A stretch of 48,489 nucleotides of DNA from an uncultured bacterium (lineage in GTDB: Bacteria > Patescibacteriota > Minisyncoccia > Phycocordibacterales > UBA9973): positions 1-48,489 of the forward strand of contig CAIVBM010000033.1 in NCBI GenBank assembly GCA_903904195.1, in the 5' to 3' direction. Positions 4,006 to 33,173 of this stretch are shown one piece after another (positions within the stretch are counted from its first letter, which is position 1; each line of letters starts with the position of its first letter). Both the position numbers and the translations under genes were made by a program. A model generated the notes under the pieces. That model was not told the origin of the DNA. It saw nothing but the letters and a program-made list of their open reading frames with translations, and did no database searches.

Positions 4006-4605
4006 ATGGAAAGACTAGGATTTAACATAGTGCTTCTCGGAATGATAACTTCCGGCAAAGATACTCAAGCAAACATCTTAAAAAAGATGTTTGCACTAAA
4101 ATTTGTAGAAACAGGGATCTACTCACGAAAATTATTAAAAGAAAAAAGTGCTAATGGTGACTGGGCAAGACGCACCACAGGAAAAGGACTTCCACTACCT
4201 ACTATTTTGTTACAAAAATTCTTAGTCTCAGAAATAAATAACCGACCAAAAAACAAAGATTTATTATTTTTAGGTGGACGACTCAAACCAGAAGCGCAAC
4301 TTTTAGTAAAAATCATGAAACAAAAAAAAGAAGGATTGCTTGCCTTCTATATTACTTTACCAGATAAAGAAGTATATAAAAGATCTCTAGTACGAAAAGA
4401 AGGAAACATGAAAGAGATATATAAAGTGCTAGATGATAAAAAAATCATCGGCAAAAGAATAAAATGGCACAAAGACCAAGTTGGTAAAACTGTAAAATAT
4501 TACCAAAAACTCAGAATTATGCACAAGATAAACGGTAAACAACCAATTCCAAAAGTCACAAAAGATATCTTAAAAGTTATTAAAAAATATAAGAAAAATA
4601 ACTAA
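4006..4605 (+). CDS. Divergent adenylate/nucleoside-monophosphate kinase paralog
   Basis: LLGMITSGKDTQ is P-loop-like and FLGGRLKPEAQ parallels DGYPRT. Size is Adk-like, and it is the only plus-strand gene in this block. Confidence 0.5.
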   Translation: MERLGFNIVLLGMITSGKDTQANILKKMFALKFVETGIYSRKLLKEKSANGDWARRTTGKGLPLPTILLQKFLVSEINNRPKNKDLLFLGGRLKPEAQLLVKIMKQKKEGLLAFYITLPDKEVYKRSLVRKEGNMKEIYKVLDDKKIIGKRIKWHKDQVGKTVKYYQKLRIMHKINGKQPIPKVTKDILKVIKKYKKNN

Positions 4606-12666: not shown

Positions 12667-13026
12667 TTATTTTTTAGCTGCGCCTCCTTTTGCATCAGCT
12701 GCGGCTGCAGTCGCTCCTTTTGCAGCATTAATTTCGGCTTCCGCCTTCTTTTGTTCAAGCTCTTTCTGCATCTTACCTCCGTGCTTTGTGAATTTCTTGG
12801 TTGGAGAAAATTCTCCTAGTCTGTGACCCACCATGTCTTCGGTGACTAACACATCTATATGAACTTTTCCATTATAAACACCAAAAGTAAAACCGAGCAT
12901 CTCGGGAGATATGACACAAGCCCTCTTCCATGTCTTGATGGTAGGAGTTTGCAACGGATTTTTACCAGCAATCTTTTTTAAGAGCCTTTCATCTACGAAT
13001 ATTCCTTTTTTGATTGATCTTGTCAT
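12667..13026 (-). CDS. rpsS: 30S ribosomal protein S19 with an Ala/Lys-rich C-terminal tail
   Basis: MTRSIKKGIFVD, FGVYNGK and GHRLGEFSPTKKFTKHG. Confidence 0.9.
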   Translation of the reverse strand: MTRSIKKGIFVDERLLKKIAGKNPLQTPTIKTWKRACVISPEMLGFTFGVYNGKVHIDVLVTEDMVGHRLGEFSPTKKFTKHGGKMQKELEQKKAEAEINAAKGATAAAADAKGGAAKK

Positions 13027-13054
13027 GATTTATGTCCTTTCAATAGTAAACAAA

Positions 13055-13071
13055 AAGCTCGAATCGAGCTT
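13055..13071 (-). promoter_or_regulatory. Palindromic hairpin plus U-tract in the rpsS leader (possible attenuator)
   Basis: AAGCTCGA-t-TCGAGCTT followed by TTTTGTTT. It lies between the rpsS promoter and the rpsS start. Confidence 0.35.
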
Positions 13072-13077
13072 GGTTTT

Positions 13078-13105
13078 ATATTAGCAAATAAGAGTAAAAT
13101 GTCAA
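13078..13105 (-). promoter_or_regulatory. Promoter TTGACA-16-(TGc)TAATAT restarting rpsS-rplV...
   Basis: Reverse complement of 13100-13105 is TTGACA and of 13078-13083 is TAATAT, preceded by ATTTGC. Confidence 0.55.
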
Positions 13106-13130
13106 ACCCAAACGCTTATAAAAAAGTTTG

Positions 13131-13158
13131 GGGTGGGCCGCGCGTACGCGACCCACCC
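13131..13158 (-). terminator. GC-rich hairpin terminator closing island A
   Basis: GGGTGGG-ccgcgcgtacgcga-CCCACCC, followed on the minus strand by CCAAACTTTTTTAT. Confidence 0.55.
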
Positions 13159-13350
13159 TCACTCTAAAGATACGTCTTCTCCTTGGCTTACTGCTCTTCT
13201 TGATCTCCTTGATTCAGAAGATGCTTGGCACATTCCCGTCGGCCAGCTCTCCTGTTTCTGCGAACACTCCTCCACTTCACTTTCTTCTCGTAGTCCACTG
13301 CTCTCCTTTTGTTTGAGGCATTTTATATGCCCGTAGTTTACTGCGACTCA

Positions 13351-13560
13351 CTACTTCACTGAACGTATCGTAAGACAGCTACCACTCTTGAGCCTGCTGA
13401 TTTTGGGATTGTAGTGACCCAAGAAATAGAGCAACTCTTTTAGAGTAAACGAGCCGTCACTCTGAACTACGAGCTCGTTTGTCCTACGAAATGTAGCTTT
13501 TTTTATATTGCTACATGCCATACCACTATCACCTCCCTTGGTAAAGGGTGAATGTGTCAC
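13351..13560 (-). CDS. Island A small ORF, 69 aa, unknown function
   Basis: ORF track. The GTG start overlaps the stop of the upstream 29-aa ORF (GTGA), suggesting translational coupling. GC-rich composition. Confidence 0.4.
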   Translation of the reverse strand: MTHSPFTKGGDSGMACSNIKKATFRRTNELVVQSDGSFTLKELLYFLGHYNPKISRLKSGSCLTIRSVK

Positions 13561-13646
13561 TTCTTGACGCCTTTTCTTCTCTCGGCGTCAGCAGCTTTTC
13601 GAGCATCTTCTTTCGCCCGAATTTCATGAGCTCTACGTCTTGTCAT
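13557..13646 (-). CDS. Island A small ORF, 29 aa, Arg/Lys-rich (MTRRRAHEIRAKEDARKAADAERRKGVKK)
   Basis: ATG at 13646 is preceded by AAAGGAG with a 6-nt spacer. Too short for the ORF track, so translated by hand. Confidence 0.35.
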   Translation of the reverse strand: MTRRRAHEIRAKEDARKAADAERRKGVKK

Positions 13647-13707
13647 CGAAGAACACTCCTTTCTTTGTTTCTGTGAACTACCTCATGCAGTCCACTTTTC
13701 TCCTATG

Positions 13708-13736
13708 TTTATACCACATAATAAAAAATAACACAA
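13708..13736 (-). promoter_or_regulatory. Putative island A promoter TTGTGT-17-(TGg)TATAAA
   Basis: Reverse complement of 13731-13736 is TTGTGT and of 13708-13713 is TATAAA, with TGg just upstream. Confidence 0.35.
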
Positions 13737-13765
13737 CAACAAGATAAAAGGTGTATAAACAAAAA

Positions 13766-13786
13766 TACGGAGGCAACGCCTCTGTA
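13766..13786 (-). terminator. Terminator-like hairpin directly after rplB
   Basis: Minus strand TACaGAGGC-gtt-GCCTCcGTA followed by TTTTTGTTT. Confidence 0.5.
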
Positions 13787-13797
13787 TTTTTTAATTT

Positions 13798-14637
13798 TTA
13801 TTTATTCTTTCCAGTCTTTCGGCGGGAAACGATGAATACGTTTGAGTATCTCTTTGGACCGCGGGTCTTTCTGCCTCCGGTGACTTTACCCCACATAGTC
13901 TTTGGACGCTTTGTTCCACGGCCTTGTCTGCCTTCTCCTCCTCCGTATGGATGGTCTACTGGGTTCATAGCAGTACCACGAACTGTAGGACGAATTCCCT
14001 TCCAGCGAGTTCTACCAGCCTTACCCCAATTTTCCAAATGATGTTCGTCGTTTGAAACAGTACCTACGCATGCCCAGCAATTTTCATTTATTTTGCGAAC
14101 TTCGGTTGAAGGCATCTTGAGGTTTGTGTATCCCTCTGCATTTGCCACTACTTGAGCGAAAATTCCTGCAGAACGGCCGATCTTGGCTCCACCGTTTGGT
14201 TGGATTTCAATATTGTAAACAAAAGTACCGACTGGAATTTCTTTCAAAGGAAGTCTATTGCCAGCTGTCAAAGGAGCTTTTGCAGAAACGATGAAAGTGT
14301 CTCCTGGTTTTACAGATTTAGGTAAAACGACATATCTCTTTTCTCCATCTTTGTAAATCGCCAAGCCGATAAAAGCAGAACGGTTTGGATCGTATTCCAC
14401 AGATTTTATTGTAGCTCCTATTTCTTTCTTGTTATATGCAAAATCCACATCTCGATAAAGTCTCTTGTGACCTGCACCCTTGTGGCGGACAGTAATACGT
14501 CCAGCACTATTTCTACCGACTCTTCGGTAAAAACCATGGGTCAAAGACTTGGTAGGTTCTGTGTGCGACAAAAGTTCCCTGTATGGGATGTGACTCATCT
14601 GTCTTCGTGATTTACTTGTAGGTTTGTATGTTTTCAT
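13798..14637 (-). CDS. rplB: 50S ribosomal protein L2
   Basis: GRNSAGRITVRHKGAGHKR and NPVDHPYGGGEGR motifs. Confidence 0.96.
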   Translation of the reverse strand: MKTYKPTSKSRRQMSHIPYRELLSHTEPTKSLTHGFYRRVGRNSAGRITVRHKGAGHKRLYRDVDFAYNKKEIGATIKSVEYDPNRSAFIGLAIYKDGEKRYVVLPKSVKPGDTFIVSAKAPLTAGNRLPLKEIPVGTFVYNIEIQPNGGAKIGRSAGIFAQVVANAEGYTNLKMPSTEVRKINENCWACVGTVSNDEHHLENWGKAGRTRWKGIRPTVRGTAMNPVDHPYGGGEGRQGRGTKRPKTMWGKVTGGRKTRGPKRYSNVFIVSRRKTGKNK

Positions 14638-17902: not shown

Positions 17903-18052
17903 ATTATTATTTGGGTTAATAATTAAGACTCAACATACAGGAACCAGTTGCTGAGGCTTAGCTACTAACTTGCCTCGCCATTGGCGTGGGCAAAATTATT
18001 AATTAATAATTGATAAATCAAAACAAAAACTGCAAAAAACGCAGTTAAATAG

Positions 18053-18080
18053 ATACTAGCAAATTTAAAAACATTGTCAA
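18053..18080 (-). promoter_or_regulatory. Promoter TTGACA-16-(TGc)TAGTAT for tuf
   Basis: Reverse complement of 18075-18080 is TTGACA and of 18053-18058 is TAGTAT, preceded by ATTTGC. A ~140-nt leader follows. Confidence 0.55.
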
Positions 18081-18122
18081 CGGCTATTTTGTGTAAAAAA
18101 TTAACACCTAAAAATAGCAAAA

Positions 18123-18146
18123 CCCAGAAGGAATTTTCCGTCTGGG
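18123..18146 (-). terminator. Hairpin CCCAGA-N12-TCTGGG plus T-run (second terminator downstream of island B)
   Basis: Minus strand CCCAGAcggaaaattcctTCTGGG followed by TTTTGCTATTTTT. Confidence 0.45.
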
Positions 18147-18190
18147 CGTACATTTTGATTTGAAAACAAAAGAACTAAATTGGGGAACAC

Positions 18191-18216
18191 GGCACGGGGA
18201 GACTTCTCCCCGTGCC
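18191..18216 (-). terminator. GC-rich hairpin terminator closing island B
   Basis: GGCACGGGGAG-actt-CTCCCCGTGCC, an 11-bp perfect stem. Confidence 0.6.
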
Positions 18217-18267
18217 GACACGAATTCATCTCTGCGATACTTCGTGTATCTCCAATGCCTTTCGGCG

Positions 18268-18552
18268 TTACAAGGTGACAGTGATAGGAACCTTGGGCTC
18301 GGCCGCTAGAGCAGCTTGGCCGAGCTTCCAGATAGCGCTCGTGATATCCGCCCACCTTGCAGGATCATCTGGCCTCATCTCTTTCGGACCAGCGTAGGGA
18401 ACAAACTTCCTGTTACCCACGTCTGCAGGCGAATATATAGAACGCCTCTTGTCGAGTTCTTTGCACAGTGTATTGAAATTGGGATTTTCTTTCCCAATAT
18501 ACATAGTGAGAAGAATCAACAAGTACACATACTCTTCATGAAACTTCGTCAT
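18268..18552 (-). CDS. Island B ORF 2, 94 aa, unknown function
   Basis: ORF track. AAAGGAA sits 3 nt upstream of the ATG, 16 nt after the ORF 1 stop. GC-rich. Confidence 0.45.
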   Translation of the reverse strand: MTKFHEEYVYLLILLTMYIGKENPNFNTLCKELDKRRSIYSPADVGNRKFVPYAGPKEMRPDDPARWADITSAIWKLGQAALAAEPKVPITVTL

Positions 18553-18568
18553 GGGTTCCTTTGGTTGA

Positions 18569-18754
18569 CTAGAGGTGCCGCCTCGCGTGAGCTGTGGTGT
18601 TCACCCCTAGGGTCATGAACTCGAAGTCGGCCGGATCAATTTTCCCCCTGGCGATGATCACCGTCATGTTGGGACCGCCCTTCTGGGCCACAATTTTTTT
18701 GATCCCCGCACGTCGCCGTTGAAACTCTTTCTCTTCATCTGGTGTAAATGCCAT
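18569..18754 (-). CDS. Island B ORF 1, 61 aa, unknown function
   Basis: ORF track. AAAAAGGAGTGTT-ATG provides a strong SD. Confidence 0.45.
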   Translation of the reverse strand: MAFTPDEEKEFQRRRAGIKKIVAQKGGPNMTVIIARGKIDPADFEFMTLGVNTTAHARRHL

Positions 18755-18883
18755 AACACTCCTTTTTCCTTATACACTGCACTAATTCTCTTTTGAAGAA
18801 AGCAACAACTTCTCAACGAACACATCCCGTATTCGTCCAGCCTTCCTCAACGAAAATCTGCACTCGTTTTAATTAGTTTACGA

Positions 18884-18923
18884 TGCAGAATTTTGGAAAC
18901 TTTTTAATTTCCAAAATTCTGCA
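18884..18923. repeat. Perfect 16-bp inverted repeat TGCAGAATTTTGGAAA / TTTCCAAAATTCTGCA with an 8-nt spacer
   Basis: Read directly. A third half-site-like copy, AAAATCTGCAC, lies at 18852-18863. Confidence 0.6.
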
Positions 18924-19017
18924 CGCAAACTATTTCAAAAATTTATTTAAAAGAACAAAAAACACTAAAAAATAGCATAACATATTTTTTAGGAAAAGTA
19001 AAGCTCCAAAGCGTCCT

Positions 19018-23540: not shown

Positions 23541-23582
23541 ACACCTCTTTAGCAAGTTTAGTTATGCACAACTAAAACCACA

Positions 23583-23610
23583 CCACTTTTGGACGGCCGT
23601 CTAGAATTGG
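23583..23610 (+). repeat. Palindromic repeat copy 1 (CCACTTTTGGACGGCCGTCTAGAATTGG + GTTTTATTT)
   Basis: Shares the TTTGGACGGCCGTCTA core and G/T-tract tail with the copy at 24118-24145. It abuts the stop of 23614-24123. Confidence 0.6.
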
Positions 23611-23613
23611 GTT

Positions 23614-24123
23614 TTATTTCTGCGCTTTTATACTTTCAATCTTAAATATCCTCACACACTTGCCAACACCGAGCAAATCAAGCCGAGCAATAAATTCTTT
23701 CGGCAAGGGACCTTTCCCCAGCCAAACGCTTTGCTGCAACATTTCAAAATCCCATAATTTTAAATGCAAGCGAAGCCAATTTCTGGTTTTCCTTTTCTTT
23801 TCCGGTATATCAAACAAAACCATAACTTTTGTATTCCCTATCGGCTTTACTAGTATTTTCGCAAATAGAGTTTGTCGTCTTAGAATATTTTTATTTAAGA
23901 TAACACCTTTTTCAGAATCAAAATCTAATATTCCCTTCTTTTTGAGTCTGTATAAATTTTTATTAAACAATTCATTACTAAGTATTCGTCTCTTCTGCAC
24001 TAATTCATAAAGCACTCTTCTTTGAATTCTGAGCGAATAACAAGACAGTAATTGACTGATAATAAGATCGCTAAAAGAAGCCTCATCTTTCCAATGTTTT
24101 TGCATCTGCATAGTATACCACAT
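23614..24123 (-). CDS. wHTH plus Cas2-fold (PaaX-like) domain protein
   Basis: The C-terminal half, KVMVLFDIPEKKRKTRNWLRLHLKLWDFEMLQQSVWLGKG, follows the Cas2/PaaX ferredoxin-fold pattern (beta-strand, DI, basic helix, QxSVW). The N-terminal half resembles a winged helix (YELVQK...LYRLKKKGIL). Confidence 0.5.
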   Translation of the reverse strand: MWYTMQMQKHWKDEASFSDLIISQLLSCYSLRIQRRVLYELVQKRRILSNELFNKNLYRLKKKGILDFDSEKGVILNKNILRRQTLFAKILVKPIGNTKVMVLFDIPEKKRKTRNWLRLHLKLWDFEMLQQSVWLGKGPLPKEFIARLDLLGVGKCVRIFKIESIKAQK

Positions 24124-24145
24124 TTGGACGGCCGTCTAAATGTGG
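24118..24145 (+). repeat. Palindromic repeat copy 2 (CCACATTTGGACGGCCGTCTAAATGTGG + GTTTTTTTTA)
   Basis: 28-nt near-perfect palindrome whose only two deviations are G-T wobble positions. It contains the ATG (24123) of the Cas2-fold gene in its stem. Confidence 0.6.
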
Positions 24146-24151
24146 GTTTTT

Positions 24152-24415
24152 TTATTTAGCTTTTTGTTCTGGAGAGTTTTCGCTTTTCCCTAAACGACTA
24201 ATTGCAACAGGTAGATTTTCAGGATTGATCTTCATACCTTTAATATCAAGTACTTGAAGCACCGAACCATTCTGATATTGAATAGCGTAACCAATGCGTG
24301 ACATATTTTTGACTTTTTTTGAACTCACCTCCGGCAATTTGAGCCTTGCCCTGTAATCAGAAACTAATTCTGGTTTTATATTTTCTGCCTGTGGGGGTTT
24401 ATTAAATTGAGACAT
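24152..24415 (-). CDS. Hypothetical 87-aa protein
   Basis: ORF track. No recognisable motif. Confidence 0.5.
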   Translation of the reverse strand: MSQFNKPPQAENIKPELVSDYRARLKLPEVSSKKVKNMSRIGYAIQYQNGSVLQVLDIKGMKINPENLPVAISRLGKSENSPEQKAK

Positions 24416-28070: not shown

Positions 28071-28771
28071 TTCCTTAATATACTCCCAAAAAGTGGCAGA
28101 TACAAGTCTTTGTTTGGGCTAATTTTTAATTCTTTCTTGTTTATCTTTTTTACAAAACAAACCGGCGCATCATTTATCAAAACAAGTGGTTGCTGTTCTT
28201 TCCCTTCCCCCATACAAAATACAGCGGATGTAGCTAAACTATCTGCAACATCTGTCTTTGACATTTTTAAAACTCTGCCGAAAATATCTTTTTTCCCAAT
28301 ATAATTCCTAACACCCTCGAAACCTGCATAACCCACAGCCATTCCGACAGCTCCAGCACGAAGCGGAAGAAGTCTAGAATCTGTTATTAAAATTCCTAGA
28401 TTTTTCAGCTGAAAATGTTGCATTAATTTCTTACGTAAAATCTCTGCACTTTTAAAACTATCTTTTGGTAAAAAAATAAGTTTACCTTTAGCGTTTGATT
28501 CATCAATTCCAGCATTTGCCATCACCATACCATCTTTGAAAGTAAGCCAAACGATTTTAGTTTTAAAAGTAAAATCACTCTCTTTTTTTATTAACGTAAT
28601 TTTTTGCTTTTCATTTTTGTATAAAGCAGTTCTACCTTCTGAGAGAGCAACTATTTTTGAAGTCACAACCAAAATAGAATTTTCATTTATATGCTTTACT
28701 TGCTCTAAAATAAAAGAAAATAAATCTTCCTTTTCTTTAAATATTCTGGTTTTGATTGGAGTAATTTGCAT
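28067..28771 (-). CDS. CofE-like (F420-0:gamma-glutamyl ligase family) protein
   Basis: VVTSKIVALSEGR, ANAGIDESNA, FLPKD and GRVLKMSKTDVADSLA match the CofE-family pattern. Confidence 0.6.
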   Translation of the reverse strand: MQITPIKTRIFKEKEDLFSFILEQVKHINENSILVVTSKIVALSEGRTALYKNEKQKITLIKKESDFTFKTKIVWLTFKDGMVMANAGIDESNAKGKLIFLPKDSFKSAEILRKKLMQHFQLKNLGILITDSRLLPLRAGAVGMAVGYAGFEGVRNYIGKKDIFGRVLKMSKTDVADSLATSAVFCMGEGKEQQPLVLINDAPVCFVKKINKKELKISPNKDLYLPLFGSILRK

Positions 28772-29411
28772 TTATATTTTTTCCTCTTAATAAACGAATT
28801 CCTAAATATGAAAATGGAGTATACAAAAACCCCATAAATATTTTGTAAGCCCACCATGGAATGATAATCAAGAAAATGGTTTTAACTGGCATAATGCCGA
28901 GATAAGCAATGAACATAAAAATAGCAGAATCAAAAAATTCAGACCAAATATTTGATAAATTTGATCGAAGCCAAAACTTTTTTTCTCCTATATGTTTCTT
29001 TAAAAAGAAAAAGGAAATCACGTCCTGATATTGGCCTATCGCAAAAGCAACCAGCGAAGCAATAGAAAAACGAACAGAGAGCCCAAAAATTTGATCATAT
29101 CCTACCTGTGCCCAAAGACCTTCTTTAGCCCATGGTGTAATTGTAGAAATTAAAGAATAAAATAAAAACAAAATAATACTTATAATACCCGCAAGAACAA
29201 AATTATTTGCCATCTTCTTACCATAAACTTCTCCTATGACATCTGTCATACAAAAAACTATCGGAAAGGAAAAGACAGCAACAGACAAATGAGTACCAAA
29301 TAAAAATGGCATTAATTTTATTCCCAAAGTATTCGCTGCAAAAAGTGAACCGATATAAAGTGTTAAGCAAACAAGAATTTTTTTATAATCCTTTTCATTT
29401 AATGTTTGCAT
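28737..29411 (-). CDS. yhhQ: YhhQ/VUT-family (DUF165) queuosine-precursor-type transporter, paralog 1
   Basis: Polytopic membrane protein with FPIVFCMTDVIGEVYGKKMANNFV, the family's signature region. Confidence 0.7.
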   Translation of the reverse strand: MQTLNEKDYKKILVCLTLYIGSLFAANTLGIKLMPFLFGTHLSVAVFSFPIVFCMTDVIGEVYGKKMANNFVLAGIISIILFLFYSLISTITPWAKEGLWAQVGYDQIFGLSVRFSIASLVAFAIGQYQDVISFFFLKKHIGEKKFWLRSNLSNIWSEFFDSAIFMFIAYLGIMPVKTIFLIIIPWWAYKIFMGFLYTPFSYLGIRLLRGKNINANYSNQNQNI

Positions 29412-29429: not shown

Positions 29430-29855
29430 TTAATCCTTTACTTCGATGCCCATTGAGCGAGCAGAACCAGCGATGATATTGATAGCTCCTTCATCATCTT
29501 TTGAATTTAAATCTGGTGCTTTTTTCTTAGCTATTTCAAGAGCTTGAGCACGAGTTATCTTACCGACTTTAGTCGTAGCATTCTTGCCTGAACCCTTCTC
29601 AATGCCAGCTGCTTTTAAGATAAGTCCAGAAACTGGAGGAGTTTTAACGATGAAATCATAACTGCGATCATCAAATACAGTAATCAATACTCCAACCTTG
29701 TCTCCAGCCATTTTAGCTGTTTTAGCGTTGAATTTGGTTACAAAGTCCCCAATGTTTATACCTGCCTGTCCGAGTGCTGGACCTAGTGGTGGCGCAGGAG
29801 TTGCTTTTGCGGCCTGTATTTGAAGTTTTATTTTTTTGGTGATTTTTTTTGCCAT
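29430..29855 (-). CDS. rplK: 50S ribosomal protein L11
   Basis: [19 protein letters not shown] and [20 protein letters not shown]. Confidence 0.95.
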
Positions 29856-32821: not shown

Positions 32822-32971
32822 CTATTCTTCGCCCCCTTTCCTTTTGAAGAACTCTTTCACGCGCCGAATTCCTTCGGCAACTTCCGCCTCCAAGGGATCA
32901 AGGGGACCATTATCCCCGCCATCATATCCCAAGACTAGGCTGAGCTTTCTGGCCTCGTTGGTACTATTCAT
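32822..32971 (-). CDS. Island C ORF 2, 49 aa (MNSTNEARKLSLVLGYDGGDNGPLDPLEAEVAEGIRRVKEFFKRKGGEE)
   Basis: ATG at 32971 preceded by AAAAGGAAACCC. It is the 3' part of the 112-aa ORF in the track. Confidence 0.4.
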   Translation of the reverse strand: MNSTNEARKLSLVLGYDGGDNGPLDPLEAEVAEGIRRVKEFFKRKGGEE

Positions 32972-32993
32972 GGGTTTCCTTTTGCTGAACGGA

Positions 32994-33173
32994 CTACAAA
33001 GAGCGCACAAGATCGGGGTCAGAAGCAGGGGACTTAGATCCACCCTCATTTCCCTCTCTTGAACTCTCTGCGACTGCAGGCGACGGTTGTTGTTGACCAC
33101 CAGAACTCGCTGCTTCTTCGGCGGCAACTTCCATTGCATCTTTCCAGTCGTGATGTTCACGTACCAGATTCAT
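32994..33173 (-). CDS. Island C ORF 1, 59 aa, acidic and low complexity (MNLVREHHDWKDAMEVAAEEAASSGGQQQ...)
   Basis: Hand-translated, one residue below the ORF-track cutoff. ATG at 33173 with AAGGAG 11 nt upstream. Confidence 0.4.
   Translation of the reverse strand: MNLVREHHDWKDAMEVAAEEAASSGGQQQPSPAVAESSREGNEGGSKSPASDPDLVRSL

Follow-up and report, generated by a model that had tools for sequence, protein, structure and literature searches.

A conserved slot between rplB and rpsS of Nomurabacteria that probably expresses exchangeable polycationic micro-proteins

The known representatives of the ribosomal proteins bS22, bL37 and bTHX (from Actinobacteria, Bacteroidota and Borrelia, and from Thermus) are 20-40 amino acids (aa) long, extremely rich in arginine and lysine, probably disordered, restricted to particular lineages and prone to omission from genome annotation. 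A second small ribosomal protein, bS21, provides a regulatory example: in Flavobacterium johnsoniae, rpsU reportedly carries a strong Shine-Dalgarno (SD) sequence in an otherwise SD-poor Bacteroidia genome and is autoregulated through the availability of the anti-SD. Here, we describe a locus that resembles both systems. It lies in a 48,489-nucleotide (nt) contig of an uncultured bacterium (CAIVBM010000033.1 of assembly GCA_903904195.1; hereafter the window, meaning this whole stretch of DNA), which carries a minus-strand ribosomal protein (r-protein) cluster of the type found in Nomurabacteria (Paceibacterota, Candidate Phyla Radiation or CPR). The gap between rplB and rpsS in this cluster is occupied by a unit of small open reading frames (ORFs), island A (13128-13736), which an earlier note made from the sequence alone had taken for an acquired cassette. 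We present evidence that island A is probably one species' version of a Nomurabacteria-wide expression slot that makes polycationic micro-proteins.

The slot peptides share with bS22, bL37 and bTHX their small size and basic character, and their genes lie inside an r-protein cluster; the first ORF of island A (ORF1), at 29 aa and a net charge of +7, falls within the size range of such micro-proteins (about 20-45 aa) and is likewise highly basic. Whereas bS22, bL37 and bTHX are conserved within lineages, slot peptides are replaced in blocks and cannot be aligned between species whose uL2 proteins are 92-94% identical. The likeness to Bacteroidia rpsU resides in a small basic gene with a strong extended SD (GGAGGUGA) in a nearly SD-free genome, but the slot ORFs have no Ribosomal_S21 match, are hypervariable and occur several to a unit. 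Two larger kinds of variable locus also bear comparison. Like the replacement islands that encode O-antigen or capsule, the slot has conserved flanks, an unrelated interior and cargo that is incongruent with the core phylogeny; it differs in its scale (0.2-3 kb rather than tens of kb), in carrying micro-ORFs rather than biosynthetic genes, in breakpoints that coincide with the ends of promoters and in its location within the most conserved gene cluster of the genome. Like integron arrays, it has a fixed promoter and exchangeable short ORFs, each closed by a GC-rich hairpin, in some cases as tandem units. However, there is no integrase at the locus, the neighbors are rplB and rpsS, each tandem unit has its own copy of the promoter, and the hairpins, by their T runs, would seem to be intrinsic terminators rather than attC sites. 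The parts of the slot (promoter, small ORFs and terminator) are ordinary, and it is a member of no named family; what appears to be new is their combination, in which a locus-specific conserved promoter, block-replaced polycationic cargo and near-exclusive use of SD sequences are found within the r-protein cluster of most species. No description of the slot was found in full-text searches on CPR ribosome structure, Nomurabacteria small proteins, small ORFs of CPR r-protein operons and SD usage in Parcubacteria.

A scan retaining one genome per species yielded 80 related loci (L001-L080) whose uL2 is 82-94% identical to that of the window; nearly all are labeled Nomurabacteria, Paceibacterota or Patescibacteria, and a number are labeled "uncultured Candidatus Saccharibacteria". 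Seventy genomes, the window included, hold both rplB and rpsS, and counts out of 70 refer to these. Between the two genes lie 86 to 2982 nt, and the gap is longer than 280 nt in 60 genomes (59 related loci and the window). Most of these long gaps have a GC-rich core, the best 150-nt stretch having a GC content of 50-75% where the loci average 33-49%. The DNA that the window's gap shares with relatives is limited to its last 65-90 nt, which contain the rpsS promoter and a hairpin at the 5' end of the rpsS transcript. A profile detects this promoter and hairpin in 70 of 70 genomes, including those with gaps of just 86-150 nt, and in some relatives the gap consists merely of a terminator and the promoter, the S10 cluster being split there too. 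Since the rpsS promoter is present even in the short gaps, the S10 cluster is split at rplB/rpsS throughout the clade, and the split is ancestral. The proposal that an acquired cassette had split the operon in one genome is therefore unsupported in that form. The accompanying proposal, that rpsS restarts from its own promoter, is supported. This promoter is retained in every genome; in the window it is TTGACA-16-TAATAT with a TG (13078-13105; promoter scan, 10 of 12 positions matching), as the earlier note had read it.

A second conserved element is found just past the rplB terminator, with the consensus atCCACtTTT..cTTGCgTTATTTTt..TGgTATAAAtATAAgTGAA. In the window, the promoter of the unit, TTGTGT-17 nt-TGgTATAAA, reads in the sequence as an extended -10 promoter at 13708-13736, exactly where it had been claimed. 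It escaped a generic promoter scan on account of the final A of its -10 hexamer, but an nhmmer profile built from relatives has a single match in the 48-kb window, spanning 13698-13744 (E 2.6e-07). The same profile matches 32 gaps, some of them twice, and its 27 matches in 640 kb of related loci each lie directly downstream of rplB. Judged from these matches, the unit promoter is orthologous and specific to the rplB-rpsS locus; the idea that it represents the general promoter consensus of the organism was rejected, as the profile matches this locus only. The genomes with short gaps fall mostly in one subclade, which makes the unit look ancestral with some losses. Under a strict criterion, a terminator within 95 nt of rplB is present in 32 of the 60 long-gap genomes, and a GC-rich hairpin with a T run just 5' of the rpsS promoter in 27 of the 60.

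Between these two promoters, the sequences cannot be aligned across relatives. In the closest species pair of the set (L065 and L080), rplB DNA is 93.8% and rpsS-rplV DNA 90.8% identical, while the gaps align over three segments only: 102 nt at the start (rplB terminator and promoter), an internal second promoter of 58 nt, and 120 nt at the end. Divergence begins no more than about 10 nt past the -10 element, approximately at the start of transcription, and all of the transcribed sequence is unrelated. Similarly, L023 and L024 differ by 2.5% in uL2 and uS19 and have unrelated cargo. L024 instead has both of its small ORFs (sORFs) in common with L044, which is 8.3% distant, and its second sORF is also related to sORFs of L028 and L075, two loci that share cargo though each is only the other's 24th neighbor among the 70. 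By these observations, the slot behaves as a miniature replacement island whose likely recombination arms are the conserved promoters and the flanking genes. No donor of the cargo was found. Other kinds of gene also occur in the slot: in L003 (4293-5170) and L015 (4841-5931), a gene pair of approximately 98 and 76 aa, by eye resembling a HicB/HicA toxin-antitoxin module, lies upstream of the basic-ORF unit, and L009, L013 and L052 hold a conserved reverse-strand gene of approximately 175 aa (66-69% DNA identity).

Exchange of cargo between close species, incongruent with the r-protein tree, is also a point in favor of the explanation advanced in the earlier note, in which a mobile or selfish cassette (an addiction module or an anti-phage function) was acquired horizontally and inserted in an essential operon. 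The basic ORFs of relatives have a third-codon-position GC content (GC3) of 0.64 versus 0.41 for rplB, a difference that could reflect either foreign origin or selection on the RNA; the ORFs of island A, and those of a similar unit in the fusA-tuf gap (island B), are orphans; and the HicB/HicA-like pairs imply that the slot accepts foreign modules. Against this, the split and both promoters are ancestral and locus-specific. The gap contains no integrase, transposase or other recombinase ORF, and no terminal inverted repeats, target-site duplication or flanking repeats, the only repetition being an internal partial duplication; island A is single-copy in the window and has no match in phage, plasmid or IMG/VR collections. 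Furthermore, the codon use of ORF1 is native, the island does not vary between samples, and in Pfam the three ORFs of island A show no toxin-antitoxin or defense-type domain, which removes the support for an addiction module. A mobile cassette is therefore quite unlikely. What survives of the acquisition claim is that the cargo turns over by exchange or replacement; the insertion itself does not, given an ancestral split, an orthologous promoter, the lack of mobility hallmarks and a first ORF of native character.

Several features of the relatives' gaps indicate that the cargo is translated. SD-led ATG ORFs of at least 19 aa number 79 on the operon strand and 17 on the reverse strand, compared with 10.2 +/- 2.5 in shuffled sequences. 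The spacing between GGAGG and ATG has its peak at 7-9 nt, with 43 cases at 3-10 nt where 10.7 are expected, and its distribution is flat on the reverse strand. Of the 79 SD-led ORFs, 46 have S, A, P or T as residue 2, and the ratio of nonsynonymous to synonymous change (pN/pS) is 0.22-0.53 in the four ORF pairs that can be aligned. Because composition is confounded by the purine richness of the units, most of the weight of the coding case is carried by the SD-ATG geometry, the strand asymmetry and pN/pS. For the relatives, GC3 periodicity was discarded as proof of coding; it is weak, since the selection of basic open frames itself biases codon positions 1 and 2. The cargo ORFs are typically 20-70 aa and SD-led. 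In 23 of 26 units that bear the promoter, that of the window among them, a first SD-led ORF could be identified past it, and these first ORFs have a median length of 40 aa (range 20-77), a median net charge of +9 and a lysine-plus-arginine content of 33%. Most of the relatives' peptides are mutually unrelated. By position, SD, length and charge, ORF1 of island A fits this class of first ORFs.

The SD sequences of the slot stand out against the genome that surrounds them. Counting a 5-mer SD within 20 nt upstream of the start, only 4 of 64 window genes and 18 of 715 large ORFs of the relatives (2.5%) have one, the native starts being preceded by A/T-rich sequence. The impression that neighboring native genes have no SD was essentially accurate, and the difference between these genes and the SD-led ORFs of the island is real and extends across the lineage. 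The ORFs of island A carry AAGGAG or GGGAGGTGA; in the gaps of relatives, GGAGGTGA occurs 9 times forward and 0 times in reverse, and AAGGAGG 18 times forward and once in reverse. Complementarity extends into UCACCUCCUU, which implies a canonical 3' tail of the 16S rRNA, and hence a canonical anti-SD. In Parcubacteria, an anti-SD motif is detected in only 48% of genomes, and the genomes without it overlap the group that lacks uL1; bS21 is also frequently absent (Tsurumaki et al. 2022, PMC9297842).

Within the window, rplB (uL2, 279 aa; 13798-14637; Pfam Ribosomal_L2_N/C on an identical product) forms the upstream boundary of the slot and rpsS (uS19, 119 aa; 12667-13026; Pfam Ribosomal_S19 on an identical product) the downstream boundary, all features named here being on the minus strand. 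The measured spacing is 771 nt, against the estimate of about 770, and the sequence bears out the earlier description: the operon strand holds a self-contained unit that has a promoter and a terminator of its own as well as SD-led small ORFs. The gap opens with the rplB terminator, a palindromic hairpin with a T run (terminator scan; RNAfold free energy, dG, -13.0) that could work on either strand; it had been placed at 13766-13786 and extends over 13761-13791. Downstream of the unit promoter, the 5' leader forms a hairpin, GUGGACUGC-AUGAG-GUAGUUCAC (13673-13695; RNAfold dG -10.6); comparable GUGG..CCAC hairpins were read by eye just 5' of the SD in L002 and L007. The unit is closed by a terminator at 13131-13158, found in the same scan, whose 12-bp stem includes 10 G-C pairs and is followed by CAAACUUUUUU (dG -25.2), in agreement with the position originally given.

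ORF1 (13557-13646) encodes MTRRRAHEIRAKEDARKAADAERRKGVKK, with 12 lysine or arginine and 5 aspartate or glutamate residues. It starts 51 nt past the unit-promoter match, and its SD, AAAGGAG (13656-13662), lies 9 nt ahead of the ATG. GC at codon positions 1, 2 and 3 is 0.57, 0.53 and 0.33, which is native-like, and in the one assembly with gene calls across the island, from Logan, ORF1 alone is called; it is the best-supported coding part of island A. ORF2 (13351-13560) is 69 aa when read from a GTG that overlaps the ORF1 stop (GTGA), as had been described, or 56 aa from an internal ATG at 13521. That ATG is preceded by GGGAGGTGA, and its extended SD, GGGAGGUGA (13529-13537), is partly paired with CACCCUU in a hairpin of dG -8.1. 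The codon-position GC of ORF2 (0.37, 0.40 and 0.49) is not native-like. ORF3 (13188-13298; 36 aa, net charge +5) begins with a GTG 4 nt past AAGGAG and has a codon-position GC of 0.59, 0.38 and 0.51; alternative small ORFs of 24 aa (13277-13351) and 38 aa (13159-13275) tile the same stretch. This stretch is the purine-rich tail of about 190 nt that had been noticed earlier: 13159-13350 is 68% purine on the sense strand and contains only the 24-, 36- and 38-aa ORFs. The coding status of ORF2 and ORF3 is uncertain.

At 13253-13307, the tail also contains a second, degenerate version of the unit's leader (AGGAGAnnAGTGGACT ... AGGAGTGTTC ... CAGAAACA), recognized from the direct repeats D1, D2 and D10 and from a leader-tail alignment. 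The sequence copied corresponds to 13651-13704, the copy retains the AGGAGTGTTC string, and a TATAAA remnant precedes it at approximately 13321-13326. Island A is best read as two tandem units of which the second has decayed, a reading matched by the several relatives that have two tandem copies of the unit promoter. The leader duplication also bears on a string reported to be common to the ribosome-binding sites of islands A and B. This string, AGGAGTGTT, is indeed shared and occurs three times in the window, twice in island A and once in island B, where 0.45 copies are expected; three copies were reached in 1 of 100 shuffles. The duplication accounts for two of the three, and the third, at the ribosome-binding site of island B, may be due to chance.

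Database searches with the island A ORFs gave no homologues. ORF2 has no homologue among 5.8e9 proteins (word-indexed search), in metagenome scans or in IMG/VR, no Pfam family, and in a tblastn search of phages a best match of only E 0.9. Five phmmer matches among 1.8e9 representative proteins (best 7e-14) were rejected as repeat-inflated, each being composed of 6-7 matches of no more than about 30 bits to a beta-sandwich repeat. ORF2 residues 28-65 resemble that repeat (D-L-I-x-D-A-D-G-S-F-x-F ... Y-x-V-T-V) at 28-35% identity and at most about 30 bits per repeat, a resemblance that is probably not significant, although ORF2 could be a relic of such a domain. An AlphaFold2 (AF2) single-sequence model of ORF2 has a moderate mean confidence score (pLDDT) of 64 and a strand-strand-helix-helix-strand (beta-beta-alpha-alpha-beta) order, and Foldseek found nothing at E < 1 for it in the PDB. 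ORF1, at 29 aa too short for the large protein search, has no PDB, Pfam or NCBIfam match, and ORF3 has no Pfam family. When the island peptides were compared with the relatives, tblastn found nothing and Smith-Waterman scores were no better than those of shuffled queries; a by-eye alignment of ORF1 plus ORF2 to an ORF of L016 was dismissed at a score of 48 against a null of 41.5 +/- 4.2. Ten representative peptides match no Pfam or NCBIfam family at E values up to 10, and three peptides compared with PDB chains returned nothing but a compositional match of E ~1 to the tail of uL13. A profile of the relatives' VVARSAxRGW sORF family also found nothing among the 5.8e9 proteins, from which it follows that the sORF genes of the relatives are essentially unannotated.

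An alternative to translation is that the unit makes a highly expressed structured or sponge RNA of about 570 nt, the ORFs being incidental to its purine richness; in one version, several SD-like or GGA motifs in this RNA would titrate 30S subunits or a CsrA-like protein. The Rsm/Csr-type small RNAs similarly have a conserved promoter and terminator around a variable body. The RNA of island A folds better than shuffled sequences (z ~ -6 for the island and ~ -6.3 for 13400-13699), beyond the neighboring genes, most of whose values lie in the range from -2.4 to +2.6, a single window reaching -3.2; we attribute this folding to the several GC hairpins of the island. The island is richer in GC than its flanks, a trait typical of structured RNAs where the genome is AT-rich, its 190-nt tail includes at least five SD-like motifs, several of them AGGAG, and ORF2 and ORF3 lack native codon periodicity. 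On the other hand, the gap matches no Rfam family at gathering thresholds or at E < 0.05: with Rfam 15 at gathering thresholds the window contains five tRNAs only and 16 related loci have no matches, and at E-value thresholds the gap matches best to Trp_leader, with 22 bits where the gathering threshold is 41. With lengths of about 200 to 2900 nt and no common sequence, a structure common to all units is unlikely. The native GC3 of ORF1 speaks for coding, and in the relatives the GGAGG-ATG spacing, the strand asymmetry, the bias at the N terminus and a pN/pS below 1 point to translation. A purely RNA-level product is thus unlikely.

The position of the unit directly 5' of r-protein genes raises a further alternative, a leader-peptide attenuator in which translation of an Arg/Lys-rich ORF decides between termination at the GC hairpin and read-through into rpsS-rplV-rpsC, which would match the synthesis of the downstream r-proteins to translational capacity. 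In the simple units that were read, a short ORF ends 7-13 nt ahead of an intrinsic terminator, an Arg/Lys-rich ORF could sense the supply of charged tRNA, and there is the weak Trp_leader match (13049-13160; E 0.076). That match scores far under its gathering threshold, however, and in the window the terminator lies about 400 nt beyond the ORF1 stop. Moreover, the promoter conserved between the terminator and rpsS in all 70 genomes makes read-through unnecessary, and no alternative antiterminator pairing was found, although pairings were not tested systematically. An attenuator of this kind is very improbable. The rpsS transcript has its own 5' hairpin with a U run (13055-13071; AAGCUCG-AUU-CGAGCUU UUUG; terminator scan and folding), which is present in nearly all folded loci, either as AGCUC/GAGCU or as GGCUC/GAGCC, the two differing by a compensatory change from A-U to G-C. 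It could be an attenuator or a site that binds an r-protein, as in the L4-controlled S10 leader, or it could stabilize the 5' end.

The island is not a product of assembly. Look-ups of the exact uL2 and uS19 products of the window led to five independent assemblies that span the island at 99.9-100% identity (Logan ERR4193245; ENA ERZ18625396, ERZ27313102 and ERZ27245625; JGI 3300009502), and a sixth contig has the identical 771-nt spacing. With different samples and different assemblers in agreement, the chance of a chimera or a sequencing artifact is negligible. The only population polymorphism in island A is a C>A change at 13651, seen in 2 samples, which is non-coding and lies between the SD and the ATG of ORF1. 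Two circumstances would favor an artifact. Several public-assembly contigs (L082, L084, L089 and L090) stop within the island or next to it, an indication that the slot is hard to assemble, and one of them, L082 (the end of a 35-kb contig, ENA ERZ27313067), diverges inside ORF1. L082 equals the window through rplB into ORF1, and its last 105 nt (4024-4128) are wholly divergent, representing either a strain with other cargo or a chimeric contig end. In composition, island A is indeed richer in GC than its flanks, but the values judged by eye (about 50% versus 35%) were too high; the measured figures are 45.5% for 13128-13736 and 30-31% for the immediate flanks. The window averages 37%, and the island lies at the 97th percentile of 609-nt windows. 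Since rplB itself is 44% GC, island A stands out from its flanks and from the genome average but not from the neighboring genes.

Several observations weigh against the slot's being a source of polycationic micro-proteins. The purine-rich sense strand (61-68%) by itself biases all frames toward K, R, E and G, and in the relatives the alternative frames are also net-positive (0.14 versus 0.17 per residue). ORF2 and ORF3, whose GC3 is not native-like, may be non-coding, and as the island A ORFs lack homologues they afford no direct test of selection. The better-than-shuffle folding suits a structured RNA too and keeps a function at the RNA level open. r-Proteins are normally conserved in sequence and slot peptides are not, nor is there any sequence similarity between them and bS22, bL37, bTHX or bS21. 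Finally, the window's rplK (29430-29855) is followed by a gene for a Vut_1 vitamin-uptake transporter (28737-29411) and not by rplA, so the organism seems to belong to the Parcubacteria that lack uL1; as the anti-SD is often undetected in that group, this is in tension with the canonical anti-SD implied by the slot.

Taking both sides together, we regard it as quite probable that the slot is an autonomous micro-operon at a conserved site with predicted strong expression, making one or more polycationic micro-proteins, in which the coding sequence is free to change while the expression signals and the charge of the products are maintained. On the evidence of sequence and comparison, a σ70-type promoter with an extended -10 element, specific to this locus, fires just past the rplB terminator, giving a predicted RNA of about 570 nt that begins with the 5' hairpin. 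ORF1 would then be translated from its strong SD, although about 95% of the genes in this genome have none. The downstream 56/69-aa and 36-aa ORFs, each with its own SD, may be translated too, and translation of ORF2 may be coupled to that of ORF1, as its GTG overlaps the ORF1 stop and the SD of its internal ATG would be held in a hairpin. The -25 kcal/mol hairpin closes the unit, and rpsS-rplV-rpsC restart from their own promoter and 5' hairpin. From species to species both promoters persist and the cargo is replaced wholesale, presumably by recombination on the conserved flanks, yet it always consists of short SD-led ORFs for very basic peptides in character.

As to function, the peptides would be abundant, disordered, RNA-binding polycations whose likeliest partners are the ribosome or rRNA, and the exceptional SDs would confer either privileged translation or translation that depends on free anti-SD. 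By analogy with the small basic proteins above, we tentatively suggest that the micro-proteins bind RNA or the ribosome; of the roles proposed in the earlier note, that of a ribosome-associated micro-protein is the most plausible, if unproven. More speculatively, they might form an unrecognized class of ribosome- or RNA-associated proteins that report free anti-SD in the manner of bS21, or act as lambda N-like hairpin binders that link the two halves of the split S10 cluster.

Other parts of the window have features in common with island A. Island B (17903-19017), in the fusA-tuf gap, has the same layout: a hairpin after fusA, AAAAGGAGTGTT-ATG, ORFs of 61 aa (18569-18754; GC3 0.66) and 94 aa (18268-18552; GC3 0.54), and a GC hairpin near 18190-18217, beyond which tuf has a conserved promoter and leader. 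With a GC content of 50% it exceeds every other 600-nt stretch of the window, its folding z is ~ -5.6, and its 94-aa ORF matches itself alone among the 5.8e9 proteins. The fusA-tuf gap of relatives is large and variable, from 166 to more than 660 nt. A 112-aa ORF at 32822-33160, intergenic between native genes (52% GC, GC3 0.63), has neither a Pfam family nor an SD and is a possible third GC-rich island. Elsewhere, a 48-nt direct repeat, 81% identical between its copies (23582-23629 and 24117-24164), brackets a 169-aa ORF (23614-24123) with a PaaX_M / Cas2-like domain.

r-Protein operons are highly conserved and serve as phylogenetic anchors for CPR lineages, and a hypervariable slot inside one of them, shared by most species of a lineage, is unexpected. 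In practical terms, the gap breaks metagenomic assemblies and gene callers miss the slot genes. The unannotated basic micro-proteins are candidate components of the ribosome or nucleoid in organisms that lack several standard r-proteins. The slot also gives a handle on translation initiation in nearly SD-free CPR bacteria, that is, on why the anti-SD is kept and what purpose the few SD-led messages serve. It constitutes a compact natural system for the turnover, and possibly the de novo birth, of small genes; if our reading is true, it would be a natural nursery where the micro-genes of a reduced genome are born and exchanged.

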